Below the pieces are notes generated by a model that was given only the letters and a program-made list of their open reading frames with translations, did no database searches and had not been told where the DNA came from. This document shows positions 3,017-21,103 of a stretch of DNA of 64,000 nucleotides, piece by piece; the first letter of the stretch is position 1, and every line of letters begins with the position of its first letter. The stretch covers positions 74,264 through 138,263 of the forward strand of contig JAJZVA010000006.1 in NCBI GenBank assembly GCA_021845905.1, given 5' to 3'. A program made the translations under genes and the position numbers. Source of the DNA: Pseudomonadota bacterium (lineage in GTDB: Bacteria > Pseudomonadota > Alphaproteobacteria > Micavibrionales > UBA2020).

Positions 3017-3631
3017 ATGCAAAACAGCAAAACTCAAAAAGGATACCTCTCACACGCCTGGCAAAAAGCGATGGCGGGATTTGCAGCCGCAGTAACAATT
3101 TCATCCGTTCTCGCCCCCACGGCGGCGGAAGCGCAAACATATGCCCAATCCACTCAAGAGCAAGTGCAACTGGATCAGTGTCGAAATCAGTACCTCGCAA
3201 ATGAAAGAAATCTGAACCAAAGCACCTACTATAACTGGCAGCAAGTCCAGTCTTTCGATCAAACGTATAGAGATACTTATAACGCCTGCGTCGCCCGCAC
3301 GCAGAGCTACTACGGCAACACGCCATCCTACACGCAGCCTTACACGCCTTACTCGCAGTCGCAAACATATCAGGCGCCGCAGTCTTCCTACTATCCGCAG
3401 ACTTTCCCGCAGCAACCGGTATACCAGCCGCCGGCATATCAGCCGCCTGCCGTCGTGTACGCTCCCGCGCCGCCTGTCTATCAGTCCTATAACAGCGCTC
3501 CCTCGATCATCCCGGAAATTATCGGTGGCGTTATCCTCGGCGGCATCATCCATCACGCCATAGAAGACGGACATCATGATCGTGGCGGATATCGTGGCGG
3601 CGACCGCGGCGGATATCGCTTCAGACGTTAA
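3017..3631 (+). CDS. secreted low-complexity Q/Y/P-rich protein with Gly/Arg-rich C-terminus
   Basis: ORF with signal-peptide-like MAGFAAAVTISSVLAPTAAEA, then Q/Y/P-rich repeats, hydrophobic GGVILGGII and GGYRGGDRGGYRFRR tail; no family recognised. Confidence 0.55.
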   Translation: MQNSKTQKGYLSHAWQKAMAGFAAAVTISSVLAPTAAEAQTYAQSTQEQVQLDQCRNQYLANERNLNQSTYYNWQQVQSFDQTYRDTYNACVARTQSYYGNTPSYTQPYTPYSQSQTYQAPQSSYYPQTFPQQPVYQPPAYQPPAVVYAPAPPVYQSYNSAPSIIPEIIGGVILGGIIHHAIEDGHHDRGGYRGGDRGGYRFRR

Positions 3632-3692
3632 ACCAGCCTCTCAACTCATCCTTAACGATTATACATTCGTGTATAACCCCGCAATATAAGTG

Positions 3693-3764
3693 TGGTAGCG
3701 CTGACCGGAATCGACCGAGGCTCCGCCGCTGAATTTTAATTGGCTCCGCTGCTGAATTTTAATT
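3693..3764 (-). repeat. decayed copy of the tRNA-Leu 3' end plus two tandem 23-nt att-like repeats
   Basis: tggtagcgctgaccggaatcgaccg resembles tggtggccctgaccggaatcgaaccg at 3806; ggctccgc(c/t)gctgaattttaatt occurs at 3719-3741 and 3742-3764. Confidence 0.5.
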
Positions 3765-3805: not shown

Positions 3806-3860
3806 TGGTGGCCCTGACCGGAATCGAACCGGTACGCCCGAAGGCTCACGATTTTAAGTC
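3806..3860 (-). tRNA. displaced 3' part of the resident tRNA-Leu(UAA) (anticodon loop to CCA)
   Basis: Minus strand reads GACTTAAAATCGTG-AGCCTTCGGGCGT-ACCGGTTCGATTCCGGT-CAGGGCC-A-CCA; TCGTG and CAGGGCC are complementary to CACGA and GGCCCTG of the 5' part at 51164-51204. Confidence 0.85.
3850..3860. repeat. att core copy 1 (gattttaagtc)
   Basis: Identical 11-mer at 3850-3860, 8341-8351 and 51164-51174; equals anticodon loop CTTAAAA plus flanking bases. Confidence 0.85.
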
Positions 3861-3918
3861 CTCTCATGATAGTCCTTACACATTGAATTTATTATACAAT
3901 TCACCATCAAAAAGTCAA

Positions 3919-3939
3919 CCGTGTAAGAACCCGTGTAAG
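3919..3939 (+). repeat. arm-type repeat CCGTGTAAG x2 (small element, distal end)
   Basis: ccgtgtaag at 3919-3927 and 3931-3939; third copy at 8235-8243 upstream of the integrase. Confidence 0.6.
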
Positions 3940-3992
3940 TTTTGAGAAGATTTTGAGGCGAGAATCCATCCTTTTTGCTCCCATAAAATGGC

Positions 3993-4030
3993 TTTGCGCC
4001 GCAACTGTAGAGTTGCGGCGCAAATTTTTT
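3993..4030 (+). terminator. rho-independent terminator-like hairpin
   Basis: 14-bp perfect stem tttgcgccgcaact/agttgcggcgcaaa, loop gtag, followed by TTTTTT (4025-4030). Confidence 0.55.
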
Positions 4031-4243
4031 AGCCTCTGGCTTATGAACACCTGTAAACCAGCCGCGTTCCGGCGATTTCTGCGGTGCTGTAGTCGGCCTC
4101 AAGGTCGCGGGCGATAAGGTCATAGTCCAGATAATAGCGGAGGGACTCCGGTATGAGCGCAACCTGAAAAAGCGGGATGCCCGCGACGGTAGCGGTTCGC
4201 GCTACCTGCTGGGGTCGCTGTATTTGCTGCTGGACGACAAGCC

Positions 4244-4684
4244 TTGTTGAACCAGTATATCCGCCAGTATGCGGAATTGCAGGTCAGGCAGGAAGAGGAA
4301 GCCCGCAAAATCGAAGCCAACAGGCAGTTCTATTCCATCATCATGAATATGAGCTACGCCCTCAACGGCGTTCCGCTCTGGCCTGTCACCGTCATGTCGC
4401 CACCGCCGGAAAAACGCCTTGACGAAAAGGCGTTCACAGCGACATTGCGCCAGAGAAGCAACAGCGAATTGCTTTCCACCGTCACGCGGCGATACGTCAG
4501 GCCGAAAATCGACCCGCCGATGGCGACGGTCAACCTGCGCACAAGCGTCCTTGAGGTCAAAGAAATCCTCCGCCGTGCGGGGTTACAGCCCGATGGAGGG
4601 AAATCCACCTTCGACCCGAAACAGAAAATCAAGGTAACGACGCCACCACCCAAGGCGTCTGCACGGTTCAACGCGAGGAGATAG
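4244..4684 (+). CDS. hypothetical protein, paralog of 36777..37130
   Basis: Shared block FTATLRQRSNSELL...ATVNLRTSVLEVKEILRR vs FTEAAYESRLQKKSNVELL...ATVALRQDVLQVKEPLRR; start uncertain (TTG 4244 or ATG 4343). Confidence 0.55.
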   Translation: MLNQYIRQYAELQVRQEEEARKIEANRQFYSIIMNMSYALNGVPLWPVTVMSPPPEKRLDEKAFTATLRQRSNSELLSTVTRRYVRPKIDPPMATVNLRTSVLEVKEILRRAGLQPDGGKSTFDPKQKIKVTTPPPKASARFNARR

Positions 4685-4687
4685 CGC

Positions 4688-5020
4688 ATGGCATGGACAC
4701 AATCAGGCGAATTCGTGGAATCCGACGTTGTGGAATGGACGGAAGCCATATGGCCTCCCAACCGTTCCCGCCGCCGGAAGAAATCCCGCCCGTGGGGAAA
4801 ACAAAAGGTCACGGCGCAAATTACAGCCATAGACGGCGATTTTGTGAAACTCACCGTCTTGCGCTCCGCTATCGTCGAAAACACTATCGGCTCGGCATTA
4901 AAACTCCACAAGGTCGGCACAACCATTACCAAGAAACGCCAAACCCTCCTGCGCGGCGAACCGGAAAGGCTCTTGTGGTCGGAAGAGGATGTACGAAAGG
5001 TACTTCTCCATCCCCAATAA
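4688..5020 (+). CDS. hypothetical protein, paralog of 41041..41520
   Basis: GAGGAG RBS; shares VVEWTE/VIRWTE, ...TITKKRQTLLRGEPERLLWSEEDVR vs TTITRGGAERLLWSDESAR with the large-element protein. Confidence 0.6.
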   Translation: MAWTQSGEFVESDVVEWTEAIWPPNRSRRRKKSRPWGKQKVTAQITAIDGDFVKLTVLRSAIVENTIGSALKLHKVGTTITKKRQTLLRGEPERLLWSEEDVRKVLLHPQ

Positions 5021-5123
5021 TAAGACAAGCATATGATAAATATAATGTTTTCTGCTATATTGCATGAATTTTAGTCTAAAAAATTGACATTTCTATATGG
5101 GTAAGCTATGATTAAGTTAAAGG

Positions 5124-5711
5124 ATGGAAACAATGGCAAGCGTCAACGAACTCAAAAAATATCTTCACTCCGGCAGGGTCTACCGCCGCGCTGATTTGGC
5201 GCGGTGGTCGAAGTCGGTTGACCGCCATTTGCAAGCACTGGTCAGGGACGGCACAGTTAAAAAGCTTTCCGGCGGCATCTACTACTGCCCAGAAAAATCG
5301 CGCTTCGGCGATTTACCCCCGCACGATGCCGACCTTATCCGCGCTTTTTTGAAGGACGACCATTTTTACATGGCCTCTCTCAACGCCTATAATTCCTTAG
5401 GCGTTGGCGCAACTCAGCTTTACAATGAAACGCTGGTTTATAACAACAAGCGGGATGGACGTATGCGCTTGAACGGGCGTCCCTACTACTTCATAAAACG
5501 ACGCTTTCCCAAAAAAGGAAGTCGGGAATTTTTAATGGTTGACCTTGTGAACAACTTGCATCTGATGGCGGAGGACACGGAAGAAGTCCTCAAACATGCC
5601 GCAAGAAACGCGCTTGAAATGGACAGGGATAAACTGATGCACGCCGTTCATGAATACGGCGGCGCACGAGCAAGAAAATTCTATGAAGGCGTATTCAGCC
5701 ATGCCAGCTAA
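5124..5711 (+). CDS. AbiEi-family antitoxin-like protein
   Basis: Immediately upstream of and overlapping an AbiEii-type nucleotidyltransferase; N-terminal wHTH-like region; family assignment from memory. Confidence 0.65.
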   Translation: METMASVNELKKYLHSGRVYRRADLARWSKSVDRHLQALVRDGTVKKLSGGIYYCPEKSRFGDLPPHDADLIRAFLKDDHFYMASLNAYNSLGVGATQLYNETLVYNNKRDGRMRLNGRPYYFIKRRFPKKGSREFLMVDLVNNLHLMAEDTEEVLKHAARNALEMDRDKLMHAVHEYGGARARKFYEGVFSHAS

Positions 5712-6660
5712 AATATATCTTCACCAGCATCCGGAATTTTCCGACCTTATCCGCGTCGTCGCGGGCGAGAAGAATATAGACCCTTACCTTGCCGAAAAAG
5801 ACTATTGGCTCATGCACTGTCTTTACGGACTGAAAAAGGCCGGATACGATTTTCAGCTTAAAGGCGGTACGTCGTTATCCAAGGGATACGGCATTATCCA
5901 CCGCTTTTCCGAAGACATCGACATTCAAATCACTCCGCTGGAAAGCTTGAATGTCAGAACGTCCAGAAACCACGACAAGGACAAAGACCGCCAAGGCCGC
6001 AAGGATTATTACGATTATCTTGCGGCGCATATTCGCATCGACGGCATTGTGAAAGTCGTGCGGGATACTGATTTTGACTCCCTGCCAAAATACTATAGCG
6101 GTGGAATCCGCCTTCACTATGAAGCAAAATTTTCTTCGGACGGTAGTGTGAAGGAAGGTATTTTACTGGAAGTCGGTTTCGATGCCATGACGCCGAACCA
6201 ACCGCTTAACATCGGATCATGGGCTTTGCGGCGAGCATTGGAGGCAAAGCTGGATGTGACGGACAACACGGCCTTGCAAATTCCCTGCTACGACCCTGCC
6301 TATACGCTGGTCGAAAAATTGCAGGCCGTCGTCACCAAACACCGCAACCTGCAAGAAAAGGGCGGTGCGTTCCCAACCAATTTTATGCGGCATTATTACG
6401 ATATTTACTGCCTGTTGCAGAATGACCATGTGCAAAGCTTCATTGGTTCGCCGGAATACCTCGCGCACAAGAAACGCCGTTTTCCGGCGGCTGACCAGCA
6501 AGCGCCGTTAAGCGAAAACGAAGCATTCTTATTGCATGATGAAGGCAAGAAGGCGCTTTACAAGAAAGAGTATGAGCGTCGCGCTTCGCTCTACTATCAA
6601 GGCCAACCGCCGTTTGAGGAAGTATTGACGGTTATCCAAAAGAATTTAAGGCGATTGTAA
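5701..6660 (+). CDS. AbiEii/AbiGii-family nucleotidyltransferase toxin
   Basis: LKGGTSLSKGYGIIHRFSEDIDIQI nucleotidyltransferase motif; 11-nt overlap with upstream gene. Confidence 0.8.
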   Translation: MPAKIYLHQHPEFSDLIRVVAGEKNIDPYLAEKDYWLMHCLYGLKKAGYDFQLKGGTSLSKGYGIIHRFSEDIDIQITPLESLNVRTSRNHDKDKDRQGRKDYYDYLAAHIRIDGIVKVVRDTDFDSLPKYYSGGIRLHYEAKFSSDGSVKEGILLEVGFDAMTPNQPLNIGSWALRRALEAKLDVTDNTALQIPCYDPAYTLVEKLQAVVTKHRNLQEKGGAFPTNFMRHYYDIYCLLQNDHVQSFIGSPEYLAHKKRRFPAADQQAPLSENEAFLLHDEGKKALYKKEYERRASLYYQGQPPFEEVLTVIQKNLRRL

Positions 6661-6662
6661 TT

Positions 6663-6979
6663 TGGTGCAGGCGGGGGGACTTGAACCCCCACGGGATTGC
6701 TCCCCACGGATTTTCATACCACTTCGGCTTTCGCCGCCACCGTCCGGTGTTCGTGGTCTGGACTATACCTTCGCCATACGGTTTGGATTTCGGCGTTCGC
6801 CTCATCTTCCGCTTAGACGCTGCCCGTCTAGTCTCTACACCTTCCCCTGTTCAGGGGCTTGGCTCGGGATTGCCATGTGAAAGGTTTCCCCGAGTTTGGG
6901 CAGTTCTGCTCCTCGGGTTTCCCACGGGGGCACTCAATTTCGTTCAAGTCCGTTGCGTATACCGTTCCGCCACGCCTGC
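6663..6979 (-). tRNA. tRNA-Leu(UAA) interrupted by a group I intron (exons 6979-6946 and 6714-6663)
   Basis: 5' exon GCAGGCG-TG-GCGGAACGGTATACGC-A-ACGGA-CTT; 3' exon AAAA-TCCGT-GGGGAGCAATCCCGT-GGGGGTTCAAGTCCCCC-CGCCTGC-A-CCA; all stems complementary; spliced length 86 nt. Confidence 0.85.
6715..6945 (-). ncRNA. group I intron (231 nt, no ORF) between U34 and A35
   Basis: Core blocks GGGGAAACC, GGCAATCCCGAGCCAAGCC, GGAAGGTGTAGAGACTAGACGGGCAGC, AAGGTATAGTCCAG, terminal G before AAAATCCGT; resembles cyanobacterial/plastid tRNA-Leu intron (from memory). Confidence 0.8.
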
Positions 6980-7004
6980 TTAATGAACTGGAATTGATTA
7001 TACT

Positions 7005-8207
7005 CTACAAATCTTCATCTTCAAGAAGCGGTTTTTTGGCCTTTTTGCCCTTTTTCTTGCGCCGCGTATTGATGGCGGCGGCATCAAGGCTGGTTTTGAT
7101 GTGCGAGGCGTAGTAATTTTCAATCATTTCCACGCTCGTCCGGCAGTTTTTGGCGATTTGATAAATATCCGCCCCTTCCATGAGGCGTAGGCAGATATAG
7201 GTATGGCGCAGACTGTAGGCCGTGCGCCTGCTCCCTTCCCTGTCGAATTTGAAATCCAACTCATTCAGGATGCGGTTGAACATTTCCCGATGTCCTTTGG
7301 GGAAAAGCCTGTCGGTCGGCTTGGGCTTTGCGTTCATTCTCAGCCTGTCCCTCAGGCGTTTGAAAGGAATGACCGCGCCTGCGGTGCTTTTACAATAACC
7401 GACACCACGCTTGCCGCGTACTTCGATTTCAAGGATTGTCTCGCCCGAGTCCTCGTCCTCGACAATGGTTACGTCCCGAAACTCAAGCCGTGAGGCTTCA
7501 TCGGGACGCAGGCCAGTATTGGCCATGAACAGCACATAGTCGTGCAACTGTGCTGACTCCCAAACCCAGCGTTTGCGCTTGGGTTTTTCCGCGCGTTCGC
7601 GCGTCGCCTGATAAAGGGTTTTATATTCCTCTGGTGAAAACCATGCGCGATGCGAGAGTTTTCCAGTTGTTTTATACGGTTCTGAAAGGTCAGGCAGGTG
7701 TTTCAACCAATCATGGCGCAAGGCTGTTTTCAGCACTTGCCGCAAGGTGACGATTTCTTGGTGCATCGTATTCCGCGCAGGCGGCTTGCCGTTGCGCTCC
7801 ATGCCTGTTTTACGTCGATGGATGCGGTATTCCTGCAAGCGTCCTGCGGTGATTTGAGAAAGCCCCATATCTCCGAAGAAAGGCAACAGGTGGACGGCCA
7901 GACGTTGTTCGTGTCCCTTCACGTATACCTTGTTCCGGTTACCCTCGGTGATAATGGGATATTCTTTCAGGAATTGCTCGGCGGCCTCGTTGAAAGTCTT
8001 CTCCTCGACAAGCTCGCCGCGCTTGTGCTTGCCCCGCAGTTCCAGATACCAGTCCTCGGCAAAGTCCTTGGCTTTGCCAAGGCTCTCCTCATGGGTCGTA
8101 ATGCGGAAGTTTTTCTCATTAAGGAAAGCGGAACACTGCCAATAGCGGCTGTCGTCGCGCTTGTAAACGTGGATACGTCCGTCAAAAATCGTGTGGCTCT
8201 CGGTCAT
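7005..8207 (-). CDS. tyrosine recombinase/integrase
   Basis: FMANTGLRPDEA (Arg box), AYSLRHTYICLRL (HxxR), NCRTSVEMIENYY (Tyr); stop is 25 nt from the tRNA 5' end. Confidence 0.9.
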   Translation of the reverse strand: MTESHTIFDGRIHVYKRDDSRYWQCSAFLNEKNFRITTHEESLGKAKDFAEDWYLELRGKHKRGELVEEKTFNEAAEQFLKEYPIITEGNRNKVYVKGHEQRLAVHLLPFFGDMGLSQITAGRLQEYRIHRRKTGMERNGKPPARNTMHQEIVTLRQVLKTALRHDWLKHLPDLSEPYKTTGKLSHRAWFSPEEYKTLYQATRERAEKPKRKRWVWESAQLHDYVLFMANTGLRPDEASRLEFRDVTIVEDEDSGETILEIEVRGKRGVGYCKSTAGAVIPFKRLRDRLRMNAKPKPTDRLFPKGHREMFNRILNELDFKFDREGSRRTAYSLRHTYICLRLMEGADIYQIAKNCRTSVEMIENYYASHIKTSLDAAAINTRRKKKGKKAKKPLLEDEDL

Positions 8208-8234
8208 AGCACCTCCGGTAATAAAGTTTCAAAA

Positions 8235-8243
8235 CCGTGTAAG
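8235..8243 (+). repeat. arm-type repeat CCGTGTAAG (small element, integrase end)
   Basis: Same 9-mer and orientation as 3919 and 3931. Confidence 0.55.
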
Positions 8244-8340
8244 TACTGTGAAAGTGAAAATTCGTGGTTTATGTCATCTTCAATTATACTAACTAATTGA
8301 AAATAAAGTCTTAATTTCCGCTAAGACCTTATAATATCAC

Positions 8341-8402
8341 GATTTTAAGTCCTGTATATGATTTTATAAGCTATTGATTTTATTGACTATTATAGGATTT
8401 TA
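8341..8402. repeat. att core copy 2 followed by a GATTTTA ladder
   Basis: gattttaagtc at 8341-8351; GATTTTA recurs at 8341, 8360, 8376, 8396; 8392-8407 ataggattttaccgtg resembles junction ataggattttaagtcgtg at 51161. Confidence 0.6.
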
Positions 8403-8403
8403 C

Positions 8404-8430
8404 CGTGCTAATGTGTTAGCCAATGTGCTA
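8404..8430 (+). repeat. arm-type repeats (C/T)GTGCTA (large element, distal end)
   Basis: cgtgcta 8404-8410, tgtgtta 8412-8418, tgtgcta 8424-8430; matching tgtgcta at 51093 and 51104. Confidence 0.55.
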
Positions 8431-8893: not shown

Positions 8894-10135
8894 TCACGCA
8901 ATCAGGGACGCGGCTGCCTCGGCTTGTTCGGTCAGGTAGTGACGGAGTTCGGCGAGCAATGCGCGTTCCGTGGGACTTACACCTGCGAGTAGATCGTCAG
9001 CCTCTTCGATCGCCTTAGGAAGGGTCAGCCAGGGCACGGTCCCGTCCCCAACCATGAGACGGCGGGCAATGGCGATCTCGTAATCACGGCGGGCGGCATG
9101 GGGCATGACATACGCCGCCTCGACGAATACGAGACGCTGGCCGAGCGCCCGCAGGCGCCCATCGCCGAGCCGGCCGATCAGCGGCGGGCGGTGGTGCCAT
9201 TCCAGATCGTGAAACCGGTCAAGCAGCGCCTGATCGTCATTGCCGGTGAAGCCGTCATAAATCTGCTCCTCGACATGGGGCGACGGCTCTTTTTCTTCGC
9301 GCGTCCGGCCAAAGGCGGCGATAAGGCGCGCGGCCAGATTATCATCGGACAGCGCGGCGAAATCGTCCGGGTCCTGCGAGAGGTCGAAGACCAGCATTTC
9401 AGAGCCGTTGTCCGGGTTCATGCCGATGCCGGTGACGAACCACGAGTATCCCTTGCCGTAGAAAAAATCTGTGAGCACGAAGACGTCCTCGTCGAGCGCG
9501 AAATCCGCGACCGCCGCCTTCTGGGCAAAGCGCACGAAATTCGACCAGTGCTCCGGCACGCGCTCGGCGATCAGGCGACACATATGGATGGTCGCCTCCA
9601 CATCGCCCATCGCATCGTGCGCGGCGCTGTGATCGAAGCCGTTGGCAGGCGCGAGCCGGTCGAGCTTGAAGACGGGCCTGCCGCGATCATCGAGCGGGAT
9701 GCTCAGGGTGTTTGGCGCGAACCGTGCGACTGCCTGAATCATCCGCAGGCTGTCGGTGCGGCAATTTCCGTTCGTATTGGTCAGGTAGGGTGCGTGCAGG
9801 GTCTTATACAGCGCCTGGCGCAACAGGTGCTCGTCAAAGCCGAGCGAGTTATGCCCGATGAATATCGCGGGCGACCATTCGGCCATCTTCGCCCTGATCG
9901 CGCGCACCATCCGGTAGTGGCTCGGCAGCGCGGGATCGGTAAGCCGGCCGATGCCGATTCCCGTGACGCGCACCGCGCCAGGCGACGGCACGACGTAAGG
10001 TAAAAGGCGGGAGCGGATTTCAAAGCGGTCCAGCTCGTTCAGGTCGTGATCCGTCCTGATTGCGCCGAACTGGAGTATCTGGTCGAAGGCGGTGTTGGTG
10101 CCGGTCGTCTCGGTATCATAAAACACGAAACTCAT
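8894..10135 (-). CDS. exodeoxyribonuclease I (SbcB)-like DEDDh exonuclease
   Basis: FYDTETTG, GHNSLGFDEHLL, HDAMGDVEAT DEDDh motifs; colinear with E. coli ExoI as recalled, somewhat shorter. Confidence 0.8.
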   Translation of the reverse strand: MSFVFYDTETTGTNTAFDQILQFGAIRTDHDLNELDRFEIRSRLLPYVVPSPGAVRVTGIGIGRLTDPALPSHYRMVRAIRAKMAEWSPAIFIGHNSLGFDEHLLRQALYKTLHAPYLTNTNGNCRTDSLRMIQAVARFAPNTLSIPLDDRGRPVFKLDRLAPANGFDHSAAHDAMGDVEATIHMCRLIAERVPEHWSNFVRFAQKAAVADFALDEDVFVLTDFFYGKGYSWFVTGIGMNPDNGSEMLVFDLSQDPDDFAALSDDNLAARLIAAFGRTREEKEPSPHVEEQIYDGFTGNDDQALLDRFHDLEWHHRPPLIGRLGDGRLRALGQRLVFVEAAYVMPHAARRDYEIAIARRLMVGDGTVPWLTLPKAIEEADDLLAGVSPTERALLAELRHYLTEQAEAAASLIA

Positions 10136-10158
10136 CGCTGGCCCTCCGCCGGCTGGAA

Positions 10159-10686
10159 TTAGGCAAACAGATTTCCGAGCCTGAAGCGCATCGCCGCCGT
10201 GCTGACCTTGTATTCCTTGGCGAGCGCGCTGACGGCGCCCTCGTCGTCAATGTCGAATGACTGCCCCTGCAATGAACGCGCAAGAAATTCTTCGGGCATC
10301 AGAAGTTCGGCGGCGAAGAAATTGGCCTCGATCTCCATTTCATCGATTCCGGCCGAAGACACCGAGTCGCGCATCAGCATCGGGAAGCCCTTATCGACGT
10401 GGATTTGCTTTGTGATCTCGGCGCGGTGAAGCACGAGATGCCCGACTTCGTGGGCGAGCGTAAATCTTTGTCGGTTGGGATGATGAAGGGCGTTGACGCC
10501 GATTATCGGCGTGCCGTCCTTGACATAGACCATGCCCGAGAGTTCGTCGTCGAGCGGGGAAAACCGCAACTGCGCCTCAAGCCCCTTGGCGATACGCTCG
10601 ACCGGAACCGGGGCCGCCATGATGCCCTGCTCGTCCCGTAATTCCTTTACGCGCTTCTGGATCGCGCTGCGCCGTTTCGTATTCAT
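10159..10686 (-). CDS. ImmA/IrrE-family zinc metallopeptidase (CapP-like)
   Basis: HEVGHLVLH motif; 4-nt overlap with upstream XRE gene. Confidence 0.8.
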   Translation of the reverse strand: MNTKRRSAIQKRVKELRDEQGIMAAPVPVERIAKGLEAQLRFSPLDDELSGMVYVKDGTPIIGVNALHHPNRQRFTLAHEVGHLVLHRAEITKQIHVDKGFPMLMRDSVSSAGIDEMEIEANFFAAELLMPEEFLARSLQGQSFDIDDEGAVSALAKEYKVSTAAMRFRLGNLFA

Positions 10687-11060
10687 GCGTTCTCCCTCCC
10701 GTTGTTGGCGCCCTGCTGCATGGCATCGCCCATCAGGCTCAGGACCTCGCGGCGCTGTTTTTCGGTCAGCCCGTCTTCGGCAAGCGGCAGCGGTGACGAG
10801 GCGCCTGCCTTCGGTGCGCGCGCCTGCGGCGCGAGCAGGAGCTGCGCCGGCGAATCGAGTTGCAGAGCCGACGCCAGCGCAAACAGGTGGTGGACAAGCA
10901 CCTGCTGCCGCCCCGCCTCAATATTGGCGAGCGAGGCGCGGGATATGCCGATCTGCTTTGCGAGCTGGTCCTGGGTCTGGCGCAGACTTTTGCGCAAGTC
11001 CCTGATTCGCGCTCCTAAACTTTGATAGATGTGGCCGGCTTCCATAGGTTTTTCTACCAT
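10683..11060 (-). CDS. XRE-family HTH regulator (CapH-like)
   Basis: LRQTQDQLAKQIGISRASLANIEAGRQ HTH; divergent from the Ubl operon. Confidence 0.8.
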   Translation of the reverse strand: MVEKPMEAGHIYQSLGARIRDLRKSLRQTQDQLAKQIGISRASLANIEAGRQQVLVHHLFALASALQLDSPAQLLLAPQARAPKAGASSPLPLAEDGLTEKQRREVLSLMGDAMQQGANNGRENA

Positions 11061-11092
11061 GCAAACGGAAGCGGCGTCAAGATCGCAAACAT

Positions 11093-11159
11093 AGACGTTT
11101 GCATTATAAACTTATTAAACGATTGCATTTTTGACATTTCCGGCGCGCTGTGGCATAAA
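11093..11159 (+). promoter_or_regulatory. promoter of the Ubl operon with adjacent direct-repeat operators
   Basis: TTGACA 11131-11136, 17-nt spacer, CATAAA 11154-11159; ACG(T/A)TTGCATT at 11095-11105 and 11119-11129. Confidence 0.5.
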
Positions 11160-11219
11160 GGAAGGGTCTGCGGGGCCGTCGGCGCCGCGCTTTCTGAAGT
11201 ACGGTGTAAGGAGATTCCG

Positions 11220-11519
11220 ATGGCGCACGAGCATCAACACGAGCATCAACACGAGCATGGACATGGTGGGCATGGCGGGGACGAAGTCACGCTTGAGGTT
11301 GGCACGCCCAAGGGGCTGTTCACTGGCACCTTCCCGAAAACAGCCAAGATTGAGGACGTGATCGCGGCGGCTGTCGAAGCCAAGGGCATCGACAGCGGCG
11401 AATCGCTAGAGCTTGTCTATAACGGCGATGTGCTGCAGCCGGTGCAGCGCACGCTCGTCAGTTTCGGCCTCGCCGGTACAGTGAAGCTCGAACTGGTTGC
11501 GACCGGCTCCGGGGTGTGA
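11220..11519 (+). CDS. bilA: ubiquitin-like beta-grasp protein with His-rich N-terminal tail
   Basis: AAGGAG RBS; MAHEHQHEHQHEHGHGGHGG then ~80-aa Ubl-sized domain ending LELVATGSGV; first gene of Ubl-E2-JAB-E1 operon. Confidence 0.7.
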   Translation: MAHEHQHEHQHEHGHGGHGGDEVTLEVGTPKGLFTGTFPKTAKIEDVIAAAVEAKGIDSGESLELVYNGDVLQPVQRTLVSFGLAGTVKLELVATGSGV

Positions 11520-14092: not shown

Positions 14093-15910
14093 TCAATTGT
14101 TTCCAGGAAGAAGGACGCAAGGGTCATTCTTCGGCGTCAAAATGGTTGTAAGACGCTTGCCTCGCGTGACGCTGACGCGCAGGTTCTGCTTGGCTTGGTC
14201 GTCTGCATGATCCCGTGAATTGAAGCGCACAATGCGGTCCGCGTTGTAGGGTGGCTGGCCCTTCCGTTTGATCGGCCAGCCCTCGAAAATAATAACTTCG
14301 TCGAATTGCTTACCTTTCGCTTTGTGCATGTTCATCACGATAACGCCGGACTCCGGCTTGACGTTTGTCGAAAAGTGCTCCCGGACGAAAGCCTGTCGCG
14401 TGATCGCCAGCGCATTGGAATAGCCGCCGTTGTCACGCCAATCCCGGGAAAGCTCCTGACGAAGTTGGGTCCCGCGCTCCAGGATACGGACGTTGCGAAC
14501 CTCATTCGCAATCTCATTCAATCTTTTGCAAGCTCCGTCCTGGAGGATGTGCCGCATGGCCAGCCAGTCGTTATCGGGGTCGCCCACAAGCACGAGCGCA
14601 CGTGTCTGGTCGTACACGGCGAGCATGCTGACGATGATGCTGTTCTTCCGCACGGCTTTGCCTGACGCATGACAAGTCAAAAGCTCTTCGTAGGCTTTTC
14701 GGATGCCCGCCGCCTCTTTCAGTGCTCCTTGCGTGGGTTCATCGCCGCCTTTGCCATGGAAGTAGTTGCACATGAGTTCGATGAACTGTTCAAAGTGATG
14801 GCGATCCACGGCAGGCTGCAACAGATGTGCGATAACTTCCGCCCCAAGGATTGCCGCCTCCATTTCGATGACCGCGGAATGCGGCACCTCAATCATCCCT
14901 GCCGGAGGTTGACGCAAGGCATCTGACACCAGGCGCGTCATCTTCTTTGTCGGGACGAGAATGGCCAGGGACCAGTCGGTGACGCCTTGGCTGACCAAGC
15001 GCCCGCGCGCGGCATAGGTCGTCGTAACTAGCTTTGTCATCGCTGGATCGGGAAAGGGGTCAAAGACATCGAACGCGATGCCCTTATACGTGTTCTGACG
15101 GAATTTCCCCGTAAGCAGGTCGTTGCCGAACATGCCGATCTCTGTCCCGGCGCTTCGGTGATTGTCTGTGCTCAGGTCTATCTCTGTTGGGGTGAACGTC
15201 TCTCGGAAATGGTGGAGACGCGCCGGGTCGGCACCAATCCAGTCATAAATGCGCTGTTCCGGGTCGGCGAGAGCAATCAGCCGGCAGAACGCGCCCAGCG
15301 CCTGAACGACCCGCCATTGCTGCGCATTCGTGTCCTGAAACTCGTCGAGGATGATGATCGGGTACATGGTCCCAATCAATCTGCGAATGCGATCGCTGCC
15401 GTGAAGGATTTCGCCGACATGGGGGGCATAGAGATCGAAGCACACAAGCCCCTCCGCGTTTGCGAGGCGGATGCGCTCTGTCTGCTCAGCGGCCTTCTTG
15501 GCCACCTTCTGCTCGTCGGAGAGGTTTCTGGCCGGGAAACCGGATCGCACCGCGGAGAGGGCGATCGCCTCGCCGGACGGCGTGAGGATACTGAGCCGCC
15601 GCGGCAGCCCGATGAGATAACCATGAGCCTTGAGGATACGCCAAAAGAAGGAATGGTAGGTCTCGACATCGATGAGCTGCTTCTGGGCACGCGGGATTTT
15701 CTGCTCATATTCGATAGCTTCTACCACACGCGAGACGGTGGCGCGTGCGAAGCTCAGAAACAGTATCTTCTGGCCGGGCCGAAGTTGATGCTCTGCCAAG
15801 TGGGCCGCCTTAAGAATGGAAACGGTTGTCTTTCCGGAACCCGGCCCTCCCGTGACAAGAAGGTGGCCATCGGCGTCCATCGCCTCAAGCTGCTTTTCAG
15901 TCAATTTCAT
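14093..15910 (-). CDS. gajB: UvrD/PcrA-like superfamily 1 helicase (GajB-like)
   Basis: LVTGGPGSGKTT Walker A, IILDEFQDT motif II; 14-nt overlap with upstream OLD-family gene. Confidence 0.8.
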   Translation of the reverse strand: MKLTEKQLEAMDADGHLLVTGGPGSGKTTVSILKAAHLAEHQLRPGQKILFLSFARATVSRVVEAIEYEQKIPRAQKQLIDVETYHSFFWRILKAHGYLIGLPRRLSILTPSGEAIALSAVRSGFPARNLSDEQKVAKKAAEQTERIRLANAEGLVCFDLYAPHVGEILHGSDRIRRLIGTMYPIIILDEFQDTNAQQWRVVQALGAFCRLIALADPEQRIYDWIGADPARLHHFRETFTPTEIDLSTDNHRSAGTEIGMFGNDLLTGKFRQNTYKGIAFDVFDPFPDPAMTKLVTTTYAARGRLVSQGVTDWSLAILVPTKKMTRLVSDALRQPPAGMIEVPHSAVIEMEAAILGAEVIAHLLQPAVDRHHFEQFIELMCNYFHGKGGDEPTQGALKEAAGIRKAYEELLTCHASGKAVRKNSIIVSMLAVYDQTRALVLVGDPDNDWLAMRHILQDGACKRLNEIANEVRNVRILERGTQLRQELSRDWRDNGGYSNALAITRQAFVREHFSTNVKPESGVIVMNMHKAKGKQFDEVIIFEGWPIKRKGQPPYNADRIVRFNSRDHADDQAKQNLRVSVTRGKRLTTILTPKNDPCVLLPGNN

Positions 15911-17768
15911 TTACACCGGCTCCCGGATCAGCGCCCGCAGCGACGGGTTCGACCGCCGCATTGATGGCGGCTGGGGCGGGTGTGCAGGCATCTTTCAACT
16001 GGACACACGCATTCCGAAGCCATTCGGGAATCTCGGACTCACTACATTGAGCCAGAAAGTCAGCGATAGCCCAATTTCCTTTGGCCCCTGCAAAATACTC
16101 CGAAAGCGCAACCGTGGCCTGCGCTCCAGGATCAGGGTACTTGGCCTTGAGGTGCGGAGGCCACGTGATGAGGTTCACGAACCGTTTTAGAGCCGCCTCG
16201 GTGGTGCCTTTCAGCACCATGGCCTCGAATCCTTTTTCCTCGTGCATCAACGACAACTCGACGTGGGCTTCAATCAGGGCCTTGTTCCCGTCCTCCTGCT
16301 TGTCGCAAATCGCAAAGGTGCGTTTTCCGAGGGCGCTATAAAACTGCGCCATGCCGGGGATGTTACTTTCGCTGCCGGCATCGACCGTGCAGATACCGAG
16401 TGCTTCAAGGGAGGAATAAACCTCCGGCTTTATCTCTGAAAGGCGACGGCATACCACCGGAAAGGCCGACGCCTCCGTAGCTCCTTCAGCAATGAGGATA
16501 CGGCGGGCGAGCAAACCTTCGCAGAAGCGGGTGCGGAATTCCTGCCGGTAGCGCTTGAGCTTCACGTTGTCGGGCAGCGCTATGATCTTGCGGGCGAGCA
16601 TCCCTTCTGTGTCACGCCCCAGAACGACGGTCTCCTCAAGGGCGAACTCCTCAAGCACGTATGGCGAATGCGACGTGAAGAGGGTTTGCGATGCCAGCTT
16701 CCGAACCTCGTGAACGATGCGCTTTTGGGCATAGGGCGGGATGGCCGTCTCCGGCTCTTCCATGGCAAAGATGACATTCTGCTTGTCTTCAGCGATTTGT
16801 GAGAGCATCGCCAGGACCAGCATGTTGATGGTGCCCGTCCCTTGTCGATAGAAGGGTGCGGCGTGATCGCCGTCTCCTGTGGCGATGAACGCCGTGATCA
16901 CCTTCCGCAAGTGCTCACGCGTTAAATTGGACACCTTAAGATGGGGCTTTACGCCCCATTCCTTTGGCACGTACTTCTTGAGCGCGACGCTGATGCTATC
17001 AAGTATCGGGGAAATACCAAGTTTCGGATCACTCGCAACCGAGATTCCAGACAGCGTTCCAAGTGTGTCCTCCCACATCTGCGGCCTGACTTCTTTGAGC
17101 CGCAGAATGATATCAAGCAGGCTGCCACGCTCTAAACTCAATGCGCGGGTGCCTGTCCGGAGGGAGCGGAGGTAAAGGAAGCCACATACCTGCTTGTGCC
17201 TCTTTGAGAACAGCTCTGGCGTGTCACCTTCCGTGAGACTGCGGGTAAAGAAGGTCCTGCCCTCGAAATCGTCCTCTTCCTCTTCGTACCAACCGTGGAA
17301 TGTGACGCGCAGCGCTTCGGTGATGGCGGCGCCGTCGACTCCCGCCGGGTTTGGTTCGTTGTAGAACTGGTCTGTCGCCGCGTCCCAAAACTCCGTGTAG
17401 TCGCCAAACTTTCCCTTCTGCTCGTCGGTAAGGTCCGCAACTGTCACCTCAATCTCGATTCTGGGAGCATCGGCCGCTACCTTGGTATCGTTGGCGGCGG
17501 GTTCGCCGTTATCATCAGCAGCGGGTTCAGCCGCTCCATCAGCCGGGGCCGCAACGGGCTTGACGGTATAATCACCTCTGAAAAAATCGTGCTCGTCGAT
17601 GGGTGGTTGGCGGTTGAGACGATCAGGCCCGAGCACCAGATCGAGTGCTTCGAGAATGGTCGTTTTGCCGGTGTTGTTATCGCCGATCAGTACCCCGTGC
17701 TTTGGTAACAACAGTGTTGTTGCCTTCACACCCCTGAAATTCTTGATGATGAGGCGACACGCTCTCAC
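15897..17768 (-). CDS. gajA: OLD-family ABC ATPase + TOPRIM nuclease (GajA-like)
   Basis: IIKNFRGVK...LIGDNNTGKTTILEAL N-terminus; C-terminal ILIAEGATEASAF TOPRIM-like; paired with UvrD helicase. Confidence 0.8.
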   Translation of the reverse strand: MRACRLIIKNFRGVKATTLLLPKHGVLIGDNNTGKTTILEALDLVLGPDRLNRQPPIDEHDFFRGDYTVKPVAAPADGAAEPAADDNGEPAANDTKVAADAPRIEIEVTVADLTDEQKGKFGDYTEFWDAATDQFYNEPNPAGVDGAAITEALRVTFHGWYEEEEDDFEGRTFFTRSLTEGDTPELFSKRHKQVCGFLYLRSLRTGTRALSLERGSLLDIILRLKEVRPQMWEDTLGTLSGISVASDPKLGISPILDSISVALKKYVPKEWGVKPHLKVSNLTREHLRKVITAFIATGDGDHAAPFYRQGTGTINMLVLAMLSQIAEDKQNVIFAMEEPETAIPPYAQKRIVHEVRKLASQTLFTSHSPYVLEEFALEETVVLGRDTEGMLARKIIALPDNVKLKRYRQEFRTRFCEGLLARRILIAEGATEASAFPVVCRRLSEIKPEVYSSLEALGICTVDAGSESNIPGMAQFYSALGKRTFAICDKQEDGNKALIEAHVELSLMHEEKGFEAMVLKGTTEAALKRFVNLITWPPHLKAKYPDPGAQATVALSEYFAGAKGNWAIADFLAQCSESEIPEWLRNACVQLKDACTPAPAAINAAVEPVAAGADPGAGVNEID

Positions 17769-17806
17769 ACTAAACTCCTTCTAATTGTTATGCTTACGGA
17801 GCGCCG

Positions 17807-20800
17807 TCACTCCTCCTCAAATCCTACCTTGCCGGTATCCAGCTTCAGGTCGCGCACATTCGCCCGCACGACATCGACAACATCGTCGGGATAGCCGGCG
17901 GGCGATGAGGCGTCGATCTCTAACGTCAGCTTTACCGTGGCTCCGTCGGCGCGGCTCAGCTCGAACAGGATTTCCTCGGCGATCTTGGCAACCTGGAGGC
18001 CCGCCTTATCAGGGTCCAGTGGAATCGAACCGTAGAAACGCCGCGGCTTCCCGGTTGTCGTTGCGGTTTTACCGGACTGATCGCCTACTCCCGTTGCCGT
18101 CGGACCGCCAGTGCGAGCGGAGGTTCCAGCACCTTCTGTCTTGCCAGTGGCTTCGCGTTCAGGCAATGCGCTGCGCCAGACCAGAATGCCGGTAGCGATA
18201 TTGCTGCCCAGACCGGCGGACCAGAGGGAAACGCGTTGGTATTCGCCGGACGCCTCGTCGAAGCCTTGGGCGAACGCCACGGGCGCCTCAATCTTGGCGA
18301 CAAGTTTTTCAATCGCCAGGGTGAGCGTGGCATCGTCCCGCAGGCGCGGCAGGTAGACATAAGAGGCGAACCAGTCGAGCAAAGTCGCAACCTCGATGTG
18401 CGGCTTGCTCTCTTCCCAGACCTTGCGCAACTCGGCCATGAGCGTGTCCGGCCCCAACTCATCGACGATGACGCTGTTGGCCTTGAGCTTGTCGTAAACG
18501 ACCTGGGCAATCGGCTTTCCCGGTGCCCGGTTGACAACCGAGGTATGCTCCAACTCGAAACCGCTGGCCGGACCTGTACCGTTGCCACCGTCCTGCGTGG
18601 GCACCGGATAGAGCACATGAGACCAGGTGCTGCGAATGCGCTGCGCGAGTCCTTCCGCGGATTGACGCATGCGGGCGTTGGCGTCTTCGATCTGCGCCTC
18701 GGTGAGGCCCTTCCTCATCTCCCTGTCTTCGACGATCGATTTCCAGGCAAGATACTTCCGGGCGATCTCGCGGCAGGTATCGAGTCCGCTCTCATCGGGG
18801 GCAACGAAAACCAGCGCGTTGCGAAACTTGCGCTGTCCGGTGCCGCGCCGTTGCAGCGTATCCGAAACGATGCGCTGCGCCGGGGTCCGTTCGGGACTCT
18901 TCAGGGCGTGTGGATATGTAGGCGGAACAATGAGAAGCGCGATGGCGCGCGCATCCTCCACGTCGATCAAGCTGTCGGGCGCGGCATGTACGCGGTGGAA
19001 ACTGCCCCTGTGGCTCTGCTCTTTGCGAAGAATAGAGATGATCTCAGCATCGGCGTCATCGGCGGCAACGTCGTTGGCGCGCTCGTCGGCAATCCGGTTA
19101 AGCGTCGGCTGCGTTGAAAACCAATAGCGGTCTCCTTCGCGGTAAAGATAGGCGGAGCGCTCCGACAGCTCGCGCAACGCATCGCCGAATATCGAAATCT
19201 GATCGCCGGGCTGCGCACAAGCGAGACGGAGCGAAGGCCCGGTCAAGCCGCCGCGCGACGATCCGCGATGGGGCGCGGTCGCAAGGAACACGGCCCGCGC
19301 GGCCCGCGTCACAGCGATGACATCGCCAAAGCGCTTACGCGAAGCCTCGATCTTGACCGGCAGGGCGAGTTCGCCATCGACCTCGCCCTGAAGGATTGGT
19401 CCATAAGAGCGGTCGAGCGGTTCCAAAATGGCCGTGCGCACCTTGTCTTCGGCCAGGGGTATCAGCCCGAGGTTAATCAAGGGCGCGGTGCTCTGCCCGC
19501 GCCATAGCGCATAGATGACGTTGGCCATGATCTTGAGAATACCGCGGGTGCGCTGAAATTTTTCCAGCGTGGACCAGTCCTCGGAAAAGCGCTTCAGCAG
19601 CTCCGGGTGGATCGGATAAGCGCGCTTCATCTCCTCACGATAGGCGGGCTCCTTCACTTCCGCGGGGAAGTCGGAAGCGTTGTCACGATAGAGCTTGCTG
19701 AAGGCTTGTATGGTCGCATCGCATGCTTTCTCGCCTTCCTCGTCGAGGGGCTGGAAGAGACGCCGTCGCACAATCTCGAAGGTCTCCATACCGCTCGCCG
19801 GGGTCCACGCGGATTGCACGCGGCCGAACAGTTTTTCGAGGCGGTGGAGAGCGGCAACGCCGCGTTCGTCGCCGACTTCCATGCCGGATTCCGGGAGCGA
19901 ACCAACGACCATGGCGCCAGGCACGGCCGCCGCGGCTTCCGTCAGCGATTGAATGAAAGCGTGGAAAGACTCGTTTTCCTCACCCCGGAGCTGCTTGGCG
20001 AAGGCAACCACTTCGTCAAGCAAAATGAGACAGGGCGAAGCGAGTTCCAGAATCTGGATGAGCTTCTCGGAGCCCGGATTGGTTCGACTGGCTTCGGAAT
20101 CGGCAATGTGGTCCACCGCGTCCCAACCACCGAGCTTGTAGGCGATGTAACCCCAGGGAGTGCGGATTTCCCGGCCATCGCTCGCATGCATGACCTCGCT
20201 CGGGCCTTTGTGCGTGCCGACGAAGACAGCGCGCTGGATCGTCGGCAGCGTCGAAACCCCGGCGGCGTCGAAGATGCTTTTCATGCCGTGCAGGATTTCA
20301 GGCTTGTATCCGGCTTGCGCCGCTCCCGCCAAGTGATAGAGGGCAAGCATGGTGTGGGTTTTGCCCCCGCCGAAATTGGTTTGCAGGCCAACCACGGGAT
20401 CGCCGCCTTTCTTCGCAAAGCGTTCAATCGCATCGCGCAGAACGCGGCTCAAGCCCTCGGTCAGATAGGTGATGCGGAAGAAGGCAAGCGGGTCGGTGTA
20501 TTCTTCCGAGCCGACGCCTTGGTCCACATGGGCGAGGTTCGCTGCAAATTCGGCGTCCGTAAAGCGCGCCTCCAGAACATCGGGATGGGGCTGGGCGACC
20601 TCGCGCCAGGGGCGGAGCTTCGCCGGCGGTGGCGGTTCGTCGAGCTGCCTCGCCCCCGCCGTCGCTTCGGCTGCCGCCTCAGGGCTTGCGCGTTTCTGGC
20701 CTTCGTACAATTTATCCACGATGGCGACCTGCTCTTTGGCGCCGATGGCATCGAGCAACTCGCGGATGGCGTCGAGATAACGAAGCGCCTCGCGATCCTG

Positions 20801-21103
20801 CATCATTCCGTCGAAATGCGAGGTCGCGTTGCGGGCATCCAGTGCGAGGGAGACATAGCTGCGCGCCTTGCGCATCCGGGCGTCATGCCGGAACACCTCG
20901 CTATAGTTATCGAGGATTGTCTTGAGTAAGCCGTAGCCATCCAGCTCCGAACCGGTATCGCCGCCGGTCGCACGGCTTACATATTGACGCCAGTGATTGC
21001 CATGGCGCTGTTTCATGCGCTCGGCCACATAGGGAGACAGGCCGACGCGCAGCGCCTCAAGGGCCTGATCGACTTTCTGCTTCGCGCCGTATGCATCGCT
21101 CAT
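17807..21103 (-). CDS. HEPN-DUF499 ATPase
   Basis: N-terminal Rx4H (ARNATSH) HEPN-like motif; FGGGKTHTMLALYHL Walker A; 1098 aa; 4-nt overlap with upstream gene. Confidence 0.75.
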   Translation of the reverse strand: MSDAYGAKQKVDQALEALRVGLSPYVAERMKQRHGNHWRQYVSRATGGDTGSELDGYGLLKTILDNYSEVFRHDARMRKARSYVSLALDARNATSHFDGMMQDREALRYLDAIRELLDAIGAKEQVAIVDKLYEGQKRASPEAAAEATAGARQLDEPPPPAKLRPWREVAQPHPDVLEARFTDAEFAANLAHVDQGVGSEEYTDPLAFFRITYLTEGLSRVLRDAIERFAKKGGDPVVGLQTNFGGGKTHTMLALYHLAGAAQAGYKPEILHGMKSIFDAAGVSTLPTIQRAVFVGTHKGPSEVMHASDGREIRTPWGYIAYKLGGWDAVDHIADSEASRTNPGSEKLIQILELASPCLILLDEVVAFAKQLRGEENESFHAFIQSLTEAAAAVPGAMVVGSLPESGMEVGDERGVAALHRLEKLFGRVQSAWTPASGMETFEIVRRRLFQPLDEEGEKACDATIQAFSKLYRDNASDFPAEVKEPAYREEMKRAYPIHPELLKRFSEDWSTLEKFQRTRGILKIMANVIYALWRGQSTAPLINLGLIPLAEDKVRTAILEPLDRSYGPILQGEVDGELALPVKIEASRKRFGDVIAVTRAARAVFLATAPHRGSSRGGLTGPSLRLACAQPGDQISIFGDALRELSERSAYLYREGDRYWFSTQPTLNRIADERANDVAADDADAEIISILRKEQSHRGSFHRVHAAPDSLIDVEDARAIALLIVPPTYPHALKSPERTPAQRIVSDTLQRRGTGQRKFRNALVFVAPDESGLDTCREIARKYLAWKSIVEDREMRKGLTEAQIEDANARMRQSAEGLAQRIRSTWSHVLYPVPTQDGGNGTGPASGFELEHTSVVNRAPGKPIAQVVYDKLKANSVIVDELGPDTLMAELRKVWEESKPHIEVATLLDWFASYVYLPRLRDDATLTLAIEKLVAKIEAPVAFAQGFDEASGEYQRVSLWSAGLGSNIATGILVWRSALPEREATGKTEGAGTSARTGGPTATGVGDQSGKTATTTGKPRRFYGSIPLDPDKAGLQVAKIAEEILFELSRADGATVKLTLEIDASSPAGYPDDVVDVVRANVRDLKLDTGKVGFEEE

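Follow-up and report, generated by a model that had tools for sequence, protein, structure and literature searches.

tRNA-dependent lysogeny was named for actinobacteriophages by Guerrero-Bustamante and Hatfull (2024; PMC10865867), with examples such as Fionnbharth, which has a tRNA-Lys-TTT, and Gaia, which has a tRNA-Leu-CAA downstream of int and a core of 8 base pairs (bp). Canonical genomic islands in tRNA genes are the subject of Islander (PMC4383910). For archaea, Randau and Söll (2008), as summarized in PMC3293823, proposed that tRNA introns and split tRNA genes give protection from integrative elements. The classical group I intron in the tRNA-Leu(UAA) gene of cyanobacteria and plastids (PMC4476775), the "Leu.3Ug" class with the form CUU/a...g/AAAA, sits at the U34/A35 site irrespective of integrases (10.1101/2020.01.27.920355). 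Here we analyze a stretch of 64,000 nucleotides (nt), referred to as the window, from an alphaproteobacterium of the Micavibrionales (UBA2020; assembly GCA_021845905.1, contig JAJZVA010000006.1, positions 74,264 to 138,263), in which two integrative elements occupy a host tRNA-Leu(UAA) gene and each carries a tRNA-Leu(UAA) gene of its own that is interrupted by a group I intron. The locus is a case of tRNA-dependent integration, a known kind of system that appears here as a new and very widespread variant. A reading of the window from its letters alone (the original prediction) had proposed that the intron protects the carried tRNA gene from integration by its own element and by sister elements, and we weigh that proposal against the wider integrase family.

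Two islands in a split tRNA-Leu(UAA) gene

The three junctions of the locus are all marked by the 11-mer GACTTAAAATC, which comprises the 7-nt anticodon loop and two bases on each side. Exact copies lie at 51164-51174, 8341-8351, and 3850-3860, all on the minus strand; by our own arithmetic about 0.03 exact copies would be expected by chance, and allowing up to one mismatch adds no further copy in the whole 64-kb window. Read on the minus strand, the first 30 nt of a tRNA run up to the copy at 51164, so that the host 5' part spans 51164-51204 and ends in the core. The copy at 3850 is followed by the variable arm, T arm, acceptor stem, and CCA, and together with the core this host 3' part spans 3806-3860. 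Both parts were assigned from the junction sequence and ARAGORN. Joined in silico through one core copy, the outer halves form a valid 85-nt tRNA-Leu(UAA), and the host gene has therefore been split within its anticodon loop. The sequence implies that precise excision would restore it.

The middle core copy has a tRNA half on neither flank, so the insert consists of two tandem elements that meet there: element A (3861-8340, 4.5 kb) and element B (8352-51163, 42.8 kb), both on the minus strand. Each element has its own direct repeats of putative arm type near both of its ends, which confirms the boundaries. In element A, the repeat TTACAC(G/A) occurs at 8236-8242, 3920-3926, and 3932-3938 on the minus strand, with an inverted copy at 3876-3882 on the plus strand; in element B, TAGCACA repeats occur at 51093-51110 and 8424-8430, with the variant TAACACA at 8412-8418. 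Repeats of this kind (TAGCACA or TTACAC) are also found upstream of int in related loci. Either order of arrival of A and B would yield identical junctions, and the order therefore cannot be deduced from them.

For element A, the identity between attP and attB extends over 15 bp, and the block common to all three sites is 11 bp. Wherever both ends of an element could be seen (elements A and B of the window and three of the related loci described below, L006, L021, and L067), this identity block measured 10 to 15 bp and always included GA(C/T)T(T/C)AAAA. Past the 11- to 15-bp core at 51164 and 8341 the sequence is unrelated to the tRNA 3' half, and ARAGORN found no tRNA at the junctions. The host gene is thus destroyed and not rebuilt, and restoration of the gene in the manner of Islander-type islands is not seen in the window. 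Just past the CCA of the host tRNA, at 3700-3760 on the minus strand, there is a decayed second tRNA-Leu 3' half (AATTAAAATTCAGCGGCGGAGCCTCGGTCGATTCCGGTCAGCGCTACCA) together with a partial duplicate; these fragments are probably displaced pieces of older integrations at the same gene.

What the junctions fail to rebuild, the elements supply as complete genes. The replacement tRNA-Leu(UAA) gene of element A lies at 6663-6979 on the minus strand, 25 nt downstream of the integrase gene intA, with exon 1 at 6946-6979, exon 2 at 6663-6714, and an intron of 231 nt at 6715-6945. That of element B lies at 49245-49558 on the same strand, 188 nt downstream of intB, with exon 1 at 49524-49558, exon 2 at 49245-49298, and an intron of 225 nt at 49299-49523. 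ARAGORN with introns enabled and Rfam family RF00028 identified both, with a splice-site table and an alignment with 34 homologues as further evidence for intron A. In both genes the intron falls at position 34/35 (U34/A35), between exons that end in GGACTT and start with AAAATCC. The 11-mer is consequently missing from both genes as contiguous DNA, and it is included in the spliced anticodon arm, GGACUUAAAAUCC. The intron of tRNA B starts with AAA, so that 8 of the 11 core bases (GACTTAAA) remain contiguous in the DNA. A sigma-70-like promoter (TTGAAG, a spacer of 16, and TATAAT), identified as a 10/12 consensus match, is predicted 18 nt upstream of tRNA A at 6997-7024 on the minus strand. 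With default settings ARAGORN reported zero tRNAs in the window and missed both intron-bearing genes; a genome annotated in this way would seem to have no tRNA-Leu(UAA). No further tRNA gene was found by ARAGORN in the 64 kb.

The integrase genes intA (7005-8207, minus strand, 400 amino acids) and intB (49747-51069, minus strand, 440 amino acids) encode tyrosine integrases that are 57% identical, and each adjoins the upstream core copy of its element. Matches to the Pfam Phage_integrase domain (PF00589) were weak for the integrases, and IntA has a Pfam SAM-like domain above the cutoff. A search of the integrase profile against Protein Data Bank sequences gave no match, and NCBIfam returned nothing useful. 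The AlphaFold model of IntB (mean predicted local distance difference test score, 73.5) has an N-terminal domain of four beta strands resembling that of lambda Int. Foldseek returned 43 matches at E ≤ 0.001; these, and every match listed, are tyrosine recombinases, with XerH, XerA, lambda Int, Tn1549 Int, and Cre at the top. The comparable N-terminal beta-strand domain of lambda Int binds arm sites.

The original prediction described this arrangement well in outline. A common core at the element junctions, an intron placed exactly between the two exon ends, a spliced RNA with the anticodon loop of the host gene, a destroyed host gene whose anticodon is supplied again by the element, and recombination within the core all agree with the sequences above. 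Its core, given as the loop with one flanking base on each side, has to be widened to two, and the interval that it assigned to the intron (6706-6955) takes in about 10 nt of each exon. The statement that the carried genes lack a contiguous core stands for the complete 11-mer in both genes and has to be qualified for the eight bases that tRNA B retains. The suggestion that tRNA-Leu(UAA) supply is tied to the element is weaker than was implied, as precise excision would rebuild the host gene.

The integrase family and its tRNA genes

Relatives of IntB are numerous. Of 8000 candidates scored, 6892 matched at E ≤ 1e-10; species-representative genomes yielded more than 568 loci, and metagenomes more than 580. 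We examined the best 80 loci from species genomes, the best 80 from metagenomes, and 7 loci on viral contigs of IMG/VR, 3 of which are full-length matches at the family level; loci from this set are cited below by their L numbers. A search of 50,697 phage genomes with the integrase gave zero matches. Hosts include, among others, Alpha- and Gammaproteobacteria, Acidobacteriota, Planctomycetota, Binatia, Nitrospinota, and Armatimonadota, and the integrase and its tRNA travel together across at least six phyla. Cultured carriers include Tunturibacter empetritectus M8US30 (L047) and Asticcacaulis sp. 201 (L022), both with the intron form, and Sphingomonas laterariae LNB2 (L016), with an intron-less CAA form. 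The layout of the window recurs, consisting of the 5' half of a host tRNA-Leu, broken off in the anticodon loop, 100 to 150 nt with arm repeats, int, a further 50 to 250 nt, and a complete tRNA-Leu. Such complete replacement genes for tRNA-Leu were present in more than 100 related loci.

The gene downstream of int was classified for 168 integrase copies. A tRNA-Leu(UAA) with a group I intron was found in 63, with 8 more that were partial or unparsed, and a tRNA-Leu(CAA) without an intron in 42. The remaining tRNA classes were small: a tRNA-Leu(CAA) with an intron (3 copies: L104, L106, and L125), a tRNA-Leu(UAG) (3 copies: L038, L061, and L136), a tRNA-Leu(UAA) without an intron (2 copies, L058 and L129, since the third, in L165, lies further downstream and was counted as having none nearby), and a single tRNA-Met (L040). 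For 10 copies the contig ended downstream of int, and for 36 no tRNA was nearby. This last class is mixed, as it contains some genes that lie 1 to 3.5 kb downstream, three invaded copies, two loci in the canonical mode, and many acidobacterial disruptors of tRNA-Leu(CAA). A plasmid match, H2 from Asticcacaulis, was set aside as a Met-type relative without a replacement tRNA.

In a neighbor-joining tree of the integrases (proteins 56 to 70% identical), UAA and CAA types are intermixed, which suggests that targets may have switched frequently between the two anticodons. The need for a replacement tRNA also appears to depend on the anticodon, as suggested by CAA disruptors that often have no replacement gene or have lost it. 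For example, ten Acidobacteriota loci (L036, L041, L048, L049, L056, L063, L068, L070, L072, and L076) lack a replacement for the disrupted host tRNA-Leu(CAA) or retain just the 3' remnant of such a gene, which in L036 and L070 directly follows the int stop codon. These loci suggest that a cell with tRNA-Leu(UAA) can do without tRNA-Leu(CAA). L051 resembles this acidobacterial set except that its disrupted gene is UAA, for which no replacement turned up within 4 kb. In two other loci (L078:9798-9884 and L131:5811-5897), a complete tRNA-Leu stands directly upstream of int and there is no replacement gene, which is the canonical, gene-restoring mode; gene-restoring and gene-destroying modes thus coexist in one integrase family.

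The three intron-bearing CAA genes differ in where the intron sits. In L106 (~1610-1900) and L125 (~2260-2560), the tRNA-Leu(CAA) has a group I intron with C at position -1 and corresponds to the unexplained, entirely proteobacterial "Leu.3Cg" class of Williams (2020 preprint, 10.1101/2020.01.27.920355). The intron of L104 (~3410-3730) is shifted upstream by one position, to between U33 and C34. A separate irregularity occurs in L017 (~9850-11331), where the disrupted 5' half has a CAA-type D arm yet reads ...GACTTAAAA, with T at position 34, and its element brings a tRNA-Leu(CAA) that has no intron. The crossover may have left a heteroduplex or mismatch product here, or target and replacement may differ in anticodon.

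The intron and the crossover site

The interrupting sequence appears to be a conserved, maintained group I ribozyme of the tRNA-Leu "Leu.3Ug" class, with self-splicing predicted. Intron B scores 54.2 bits against RF00028, above the gathering score of 50, and intron A scores 45.9 bits (E 1e-10), slightly below it, so that Rfam at its gathering threshold reports intron B only and intron A was obtained in E-value mode. The homologous introns of L052 (77.7 bits) and L104 (51.1 bits) exceed the threshold. The guide sequence TGAGTGC, the U at -1, and the terminal G were found in all 37 intron-bearing genes checked, which read GACTT/intron...G/AAAAT. Alignment of 35 introns revealed invariant core blocks and compensatory (two-sided) changes in 20 of the 53 predicted pairs; the pseudoknotted helices P3 and P7 lie outside what RNAalifold models. 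Introns of the family measure 199 to 269 nt and contain no open reading frame (ORF). On several homologues ARAGORN assigned the labels tRNA-Ser(AGA/GGA) or tRNA-Phe(AAA) with splice sites 1 to 2 nt off; these labels were discarded and the sites rederived from U-1 and the terminal G. Identity with the Anabaena tRNA-Leu intron is approximately 77% over aligned positions, which serves as a lead and not as a test. A tRNA-Leu intron from a gammaproteobacterium was reportedly described by Vepritskiy in 2002.

We propose that the crossover made by the lambda-like tyrosine integrases of this family would fall within the host tRNA-Leu(UAA) gene, in a short core made up of the anticodon loop and two flanking base pairs. 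As attP would hold the core alone, the host gene would be split and not rebuilt, and the element-borne tRNA gene would take its place. Because the intron lies in the middle of the loop, within the crossover block, the gene supplies the same mature tRNA and the block is not contiguous in its DNA. This split core would make the replacement gene a nonsubstrate for integrases of the family. Two hazards would thereby be avoided. Recombination between attP and the element's own tRNA gene, approximately 1.5 kb apart and in direct orientation, would cut int away from the cargo in an excised circle, and sister elements could invade the carried gene. Self-recombination would be the stronger of the two reasons for keeping the tRNA gene a nonsubstrate. 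Two solutions are observed in the family, the intron or altered core bases in the replacement tRNA, and a need for a nonsubstrate would fit both.

The state of the core among the scored genes is in line with this proposal. The contiguous 11-mer was present in the DNA of 0 of 70 intron-bearing replacement genes, the longest run being 5 to 8 of the 11 bases. After splicing, all 70 have GACT(T/C) at positions 30 to 34, as do 117 of 129 disrupted targets, compared with only 7 of 50 intron-less genes. The 5-mer of the element's own junction was matched by 67 of 69 intron-bearing copies (spliced) versus 5 of 49 intron-less ones, and when copies were grouped into integrase clusters at 80% identity, the canonical core was found in 30 of 30 intron-bearing clusters versus 7 of 27 intron-less ones. 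The variant bases of intron-less copies recur at 30:40, 31:39, and 32 (CACT, GATT, GTCT, and GGCT). Among scored UAA replacement copies, 67 of 70 have the intron form, and two of the three that do not have an altered core (L058, CACTT...ATG; L165, GATTT).

Arrays of elements bear on the same question. Intron-less tRNA-Leu(CAA) replacement genes have been invaded by sister elements in three nested events, located in two Sphingomonadales metagenome-assembled genomes (L014:10001-14221, with three integrases, and L015:8483-11335, with two). L014 runs from the host 5' half through int1, the 5' half of int1's tRNA, int2, the 5' half of int2's tRNA, and int3 to a complete tRNA; its outermost integrase gene, int1, is a pseudogene with an internal stop codon. 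L015 has one nested step. The truncated copies have the upstream spacer of the intact copy, which identifies them as invaded replacement genes. In these arrays two integrase subtypes insert alternately into each other's intron-less tRNA-Leu(CAA), one that has TAGC(G/A)CA arms and carries a GCACTC arm and another that has CTTACACA arms and carries a GGATTC arm. No invaded or interrupted intron-bearing copy was seen among the intron-bearing loci examined.

The prediction of self-immunity therefore fared unevenly. The split core in every intron-bearing gene and the invasion of intron-less ones speak for it, as does the expectation that intron-containing genes would not serve as targets, which held among the copies examined; the frequency of intron-less copies, some of them canonical, speaks against it. 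Intron-less tRNA-Leu copies are common on homologous elements (50 of the 120 scored replacement genes have no intron), an outcome that the prediction itself had named as refuting. The suggestion that immunity would explain why the second element of the window landed at an att junction also loses force, since tandem junctions are common with and without introns and such a position calls for no special explanation. The intron is not obligatory and is one of at least two solutions.

Several observations weigh against a shielding function and have to be set beside the evidence above. The 50 replacement genes without an intron are mostly CAA and include three UAA genes (L058, L129, and L165). Intron-less copies with a target-identical core stand beside intact integrases in at least six lineages (L030, L055, L080, L118, L166, and L129), and shielding is therefore not essential. 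The clearest counterexample to obligatory shielding is L129 (~7231-7310), an intron-less UAA copy with the canonical arm CGGACTTAAAATCCG, an intact integrase, and a tandem junction. The contrast in canonical core among intron-bearing copies, intron-less copies, and targets is confounded with anticodon class (UAA versus CAA) and with ascertainment, as targets are canonical by definition. The apparent avoidance of its own target arm by the intron-less arm is not significant, since by a rough hand estimate from marginal frequencies about 7 of 43 matches would be expected and 5 were seen; what holds up is the depletion of the canonical core alone. Counted by each integrase's own replacement tRNA and not by that of the upstream neighbor, tandem junctions (a core without a tRNA half) outnumber nested insertions by 10 to 3 for intron-less CAA copies and by 6 to 0 for intron-bearing ones (16 to 3 in total). 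Tandem insertion at att junctions is thus the commoner arrangement regardless, and nested insertions in 0 of 6 versus 3 of 13 cases do not differ significantly (one-sided hypergeometric P of ~0.3, our own arithmetic on small counts). Group I introns in cyanobacteria and plastids persist for very long times without a known shielding function. Related integrase systems may need an overlap of only 3 bp (PMC10865867). All intron-bearing copies are homologous, moreover, so that shared ancestry accounts for much of the association, and "canonical core plus intron" may be a single inherited state. An alternative whose chance we place somewhat under one half is that the intron was inherited with an ancestral captured tRNA-Leu(UAA) as a neutral passenger. 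It would have been kept because the tRNA cannot be dispensed with and the intron is seldom lost precisely, and any shielding would be incidental and without selective weight. Near-identical exons around a homologous intron in all intron-bearing copies would be expected on this account, as would the resemblance to the Anabaena intron, the large minority of relatives without an intron, the intact-looking canonical copies among them, and array statistics that reach no significance; L104, L106, and L125, which retained the intron through point changes on switching to CAA, likewise look as they should if loss is hard. Against neutrality stand the strong depletion of the canonical core from intron-less copies relative to targets, also when counted by clusters, the invasion that intron-less copies undergo, and an integrase tree in which UAA and CAA types are intermixed and yet nearly all UAA copies have the intron form.

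Two further explanations can be given little credence. The intron could have some other role, such as gating or timing tRNA maturation or marking the transcript for processing, with its position in the core a coincidence of the classical insertion site. That site is used irrespective of integrases (10.1101/2020.01.27.920355), and we found nothing more specific in favor of such a role. We saw no regulatory feature, a promoter-like site precedes tRNA A itself, and the correlation between intron and core state would not be predicted; we consider this explanation very improbable. Still more remote, to the point that we rejected it on the junction sequences, is the reading that the intron-bearing tRNA genes are the host's own and that the halves are displaced fragments of gene-restoring islands. 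Canonical members such as L078 and L131 do exist, and the decayed extra 3' half at 3700-3760 could be cited in its support, but both intron-bearing tRNA genes lie within boundaries set by the core copies and element-specific arm repeats, the junctions do not run on into the 3' half of a tRNA, the outer halves match each other perfectly, and the pair of integrase and tRNA spans at least six phyla. On balance, the comparative sequence evidence suggests that shielding is real and contributes to the retention of the intron, with a probability of roughly 0.55. A broader claim, which we would advance only tentatively and at somewhat less than even odds, is that the intron is kept to hide the crossover site in the DNA from the element's own and sister integrases, with a normal tRNA-Leu(UAA) still made from the RNA, and that this cassette, which overwrites host tRNA-Leu genes, has been the main spreader of the "cyanobacterial" tRNA-Leu intron across Proteobacteria, Acidobacteriota, Planctomycetota, and other phyla, which would also explain why Proteobacteria have Leu(CAA) introns preceded by C at -1.

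Element cargo and comparison with described systems

The cargo of the two elements characterizes them as an AbiE mini-island (A) and a mobilizable defense island (B), and neither has the features of a temperate phage. Element A carries AbiEi (5124-5711) and AbiEii (5650-6660) on the plus strand, together spanning 5124-6660 (PADLOC E values of 3e-77 and 2e-64, respectively, with AbiEii also matched by Pfam). Element B encodes a relaxase (38187-39701), a type IV coupling protein (41712-44855), ArdC (29949-31205), a ParB-like gene (46513-48330), and an IS110 transposase (31337-32464). Its defense genes, identified by PADLOC with extremely low E values, are Gabija (14093-17768, with GajB at 14093-15910 and GajA at 15897-17768) and a complete Hma system (17807-27575, with HmaC at 17807-21103, HmaB at 21100-24057, and HmaA at 24054-27575). 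The Gabija pair directly adjoins the Hma system, so that defense genes run through 14093-27575.

The intron-bearing replacement tRNA genes present an annotation problem, as default tRNA finders miss them and their carriers will appear to have no tRNA-Leu(UAA). They also bear on the history of the intron. Antiquity versus transfer of the classical tRNA-Leu(UAA) intron has long been debated, and its horizontal spread outside cyanobacteria would have a concrete, testable vehicle in a cassette that eliminates the resident gene and puts an intron-bearing one in its place. The link between intron and integrase is of interest for that history whether shielding or neutral carriage holds. Compared with the classical cyanobacterial and plastid intron, ours shares the insertion site, U-1, the terminal G, and the group I core motifs; it differs in residing in a mobile replacement gene beside an integrase, in noncyanobacterial hosts, and in having CAA derivatives.

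The closest precedent for the shielding itself is the archaeal proposal of Randau and Söll, which, as far as its summary conveys, likewise has an intron in the attachment site remove the contiguous DNA target while leaving the mature tRNA unchanged. That proposal concerns host genes and protein-spliced bulge-helix-bulge introns, whereas here the gene is the element's own, the intron is predicted to be self-splicing, and the hazard would be the element's own or a sister integrase. In group I intron homing, insertion splits the recognition site of the endonuclease, and the occupied allele becomes immune. Unlike that immunity, there is no homing endonuclease ORF here, and the split site is that of an integrase encoded outside the intron. 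The shielding principle itself is thus not new. An association of integrase and intron-bearing tRNA was not found described in the searchable literature, nor was the presence of the classical tRNA-Leu intron in an integrase cassette by which host tRNA-Leu genes are overwritten. The family offers a bacterial system for the idea of introns as recombination shields, with natural controls in the form of intron-less relatives, altered-core relatives, and nested invasions.

Like canonical tRNA-gene islands, these elements have a tyrosine integrase, a crossover in a tRNA gene, and int beside the junction, and islands with a crossover in the anticodon loop are said to have been recognized as a class by Williams in 2002. 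Canonical islands, however, carry the displaced part of the tRNA in attP and regenerate the gene, whereas here 11 to 15 bp are common and a whole separate gene is carried. The nearest match is the tRNA-dependent lysogeny of actinophages, with which these elements share a tyrosine integrase with arm-type sites (putative ones here), an attB in the anticodon loop, a core of about 8 to 11 bp, a host tRNA gene that is not rebuilt, and a carried substitute with the same anticodon. The paper on those phages (PMC10865867) does not take up self-targeting of the carried tRNA. Unlike the actinophages, the elements here are nonphage islands, belong to a cross-phylum family, and bear a replacement tRNA with a group I intron. 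The comparison takes tRNA-dependent integration beyond a few actinophages and into nonphage islands that carry defense systems (here AbiE, Gabija, and Hma) and belong to a very large family spanning several phyla.

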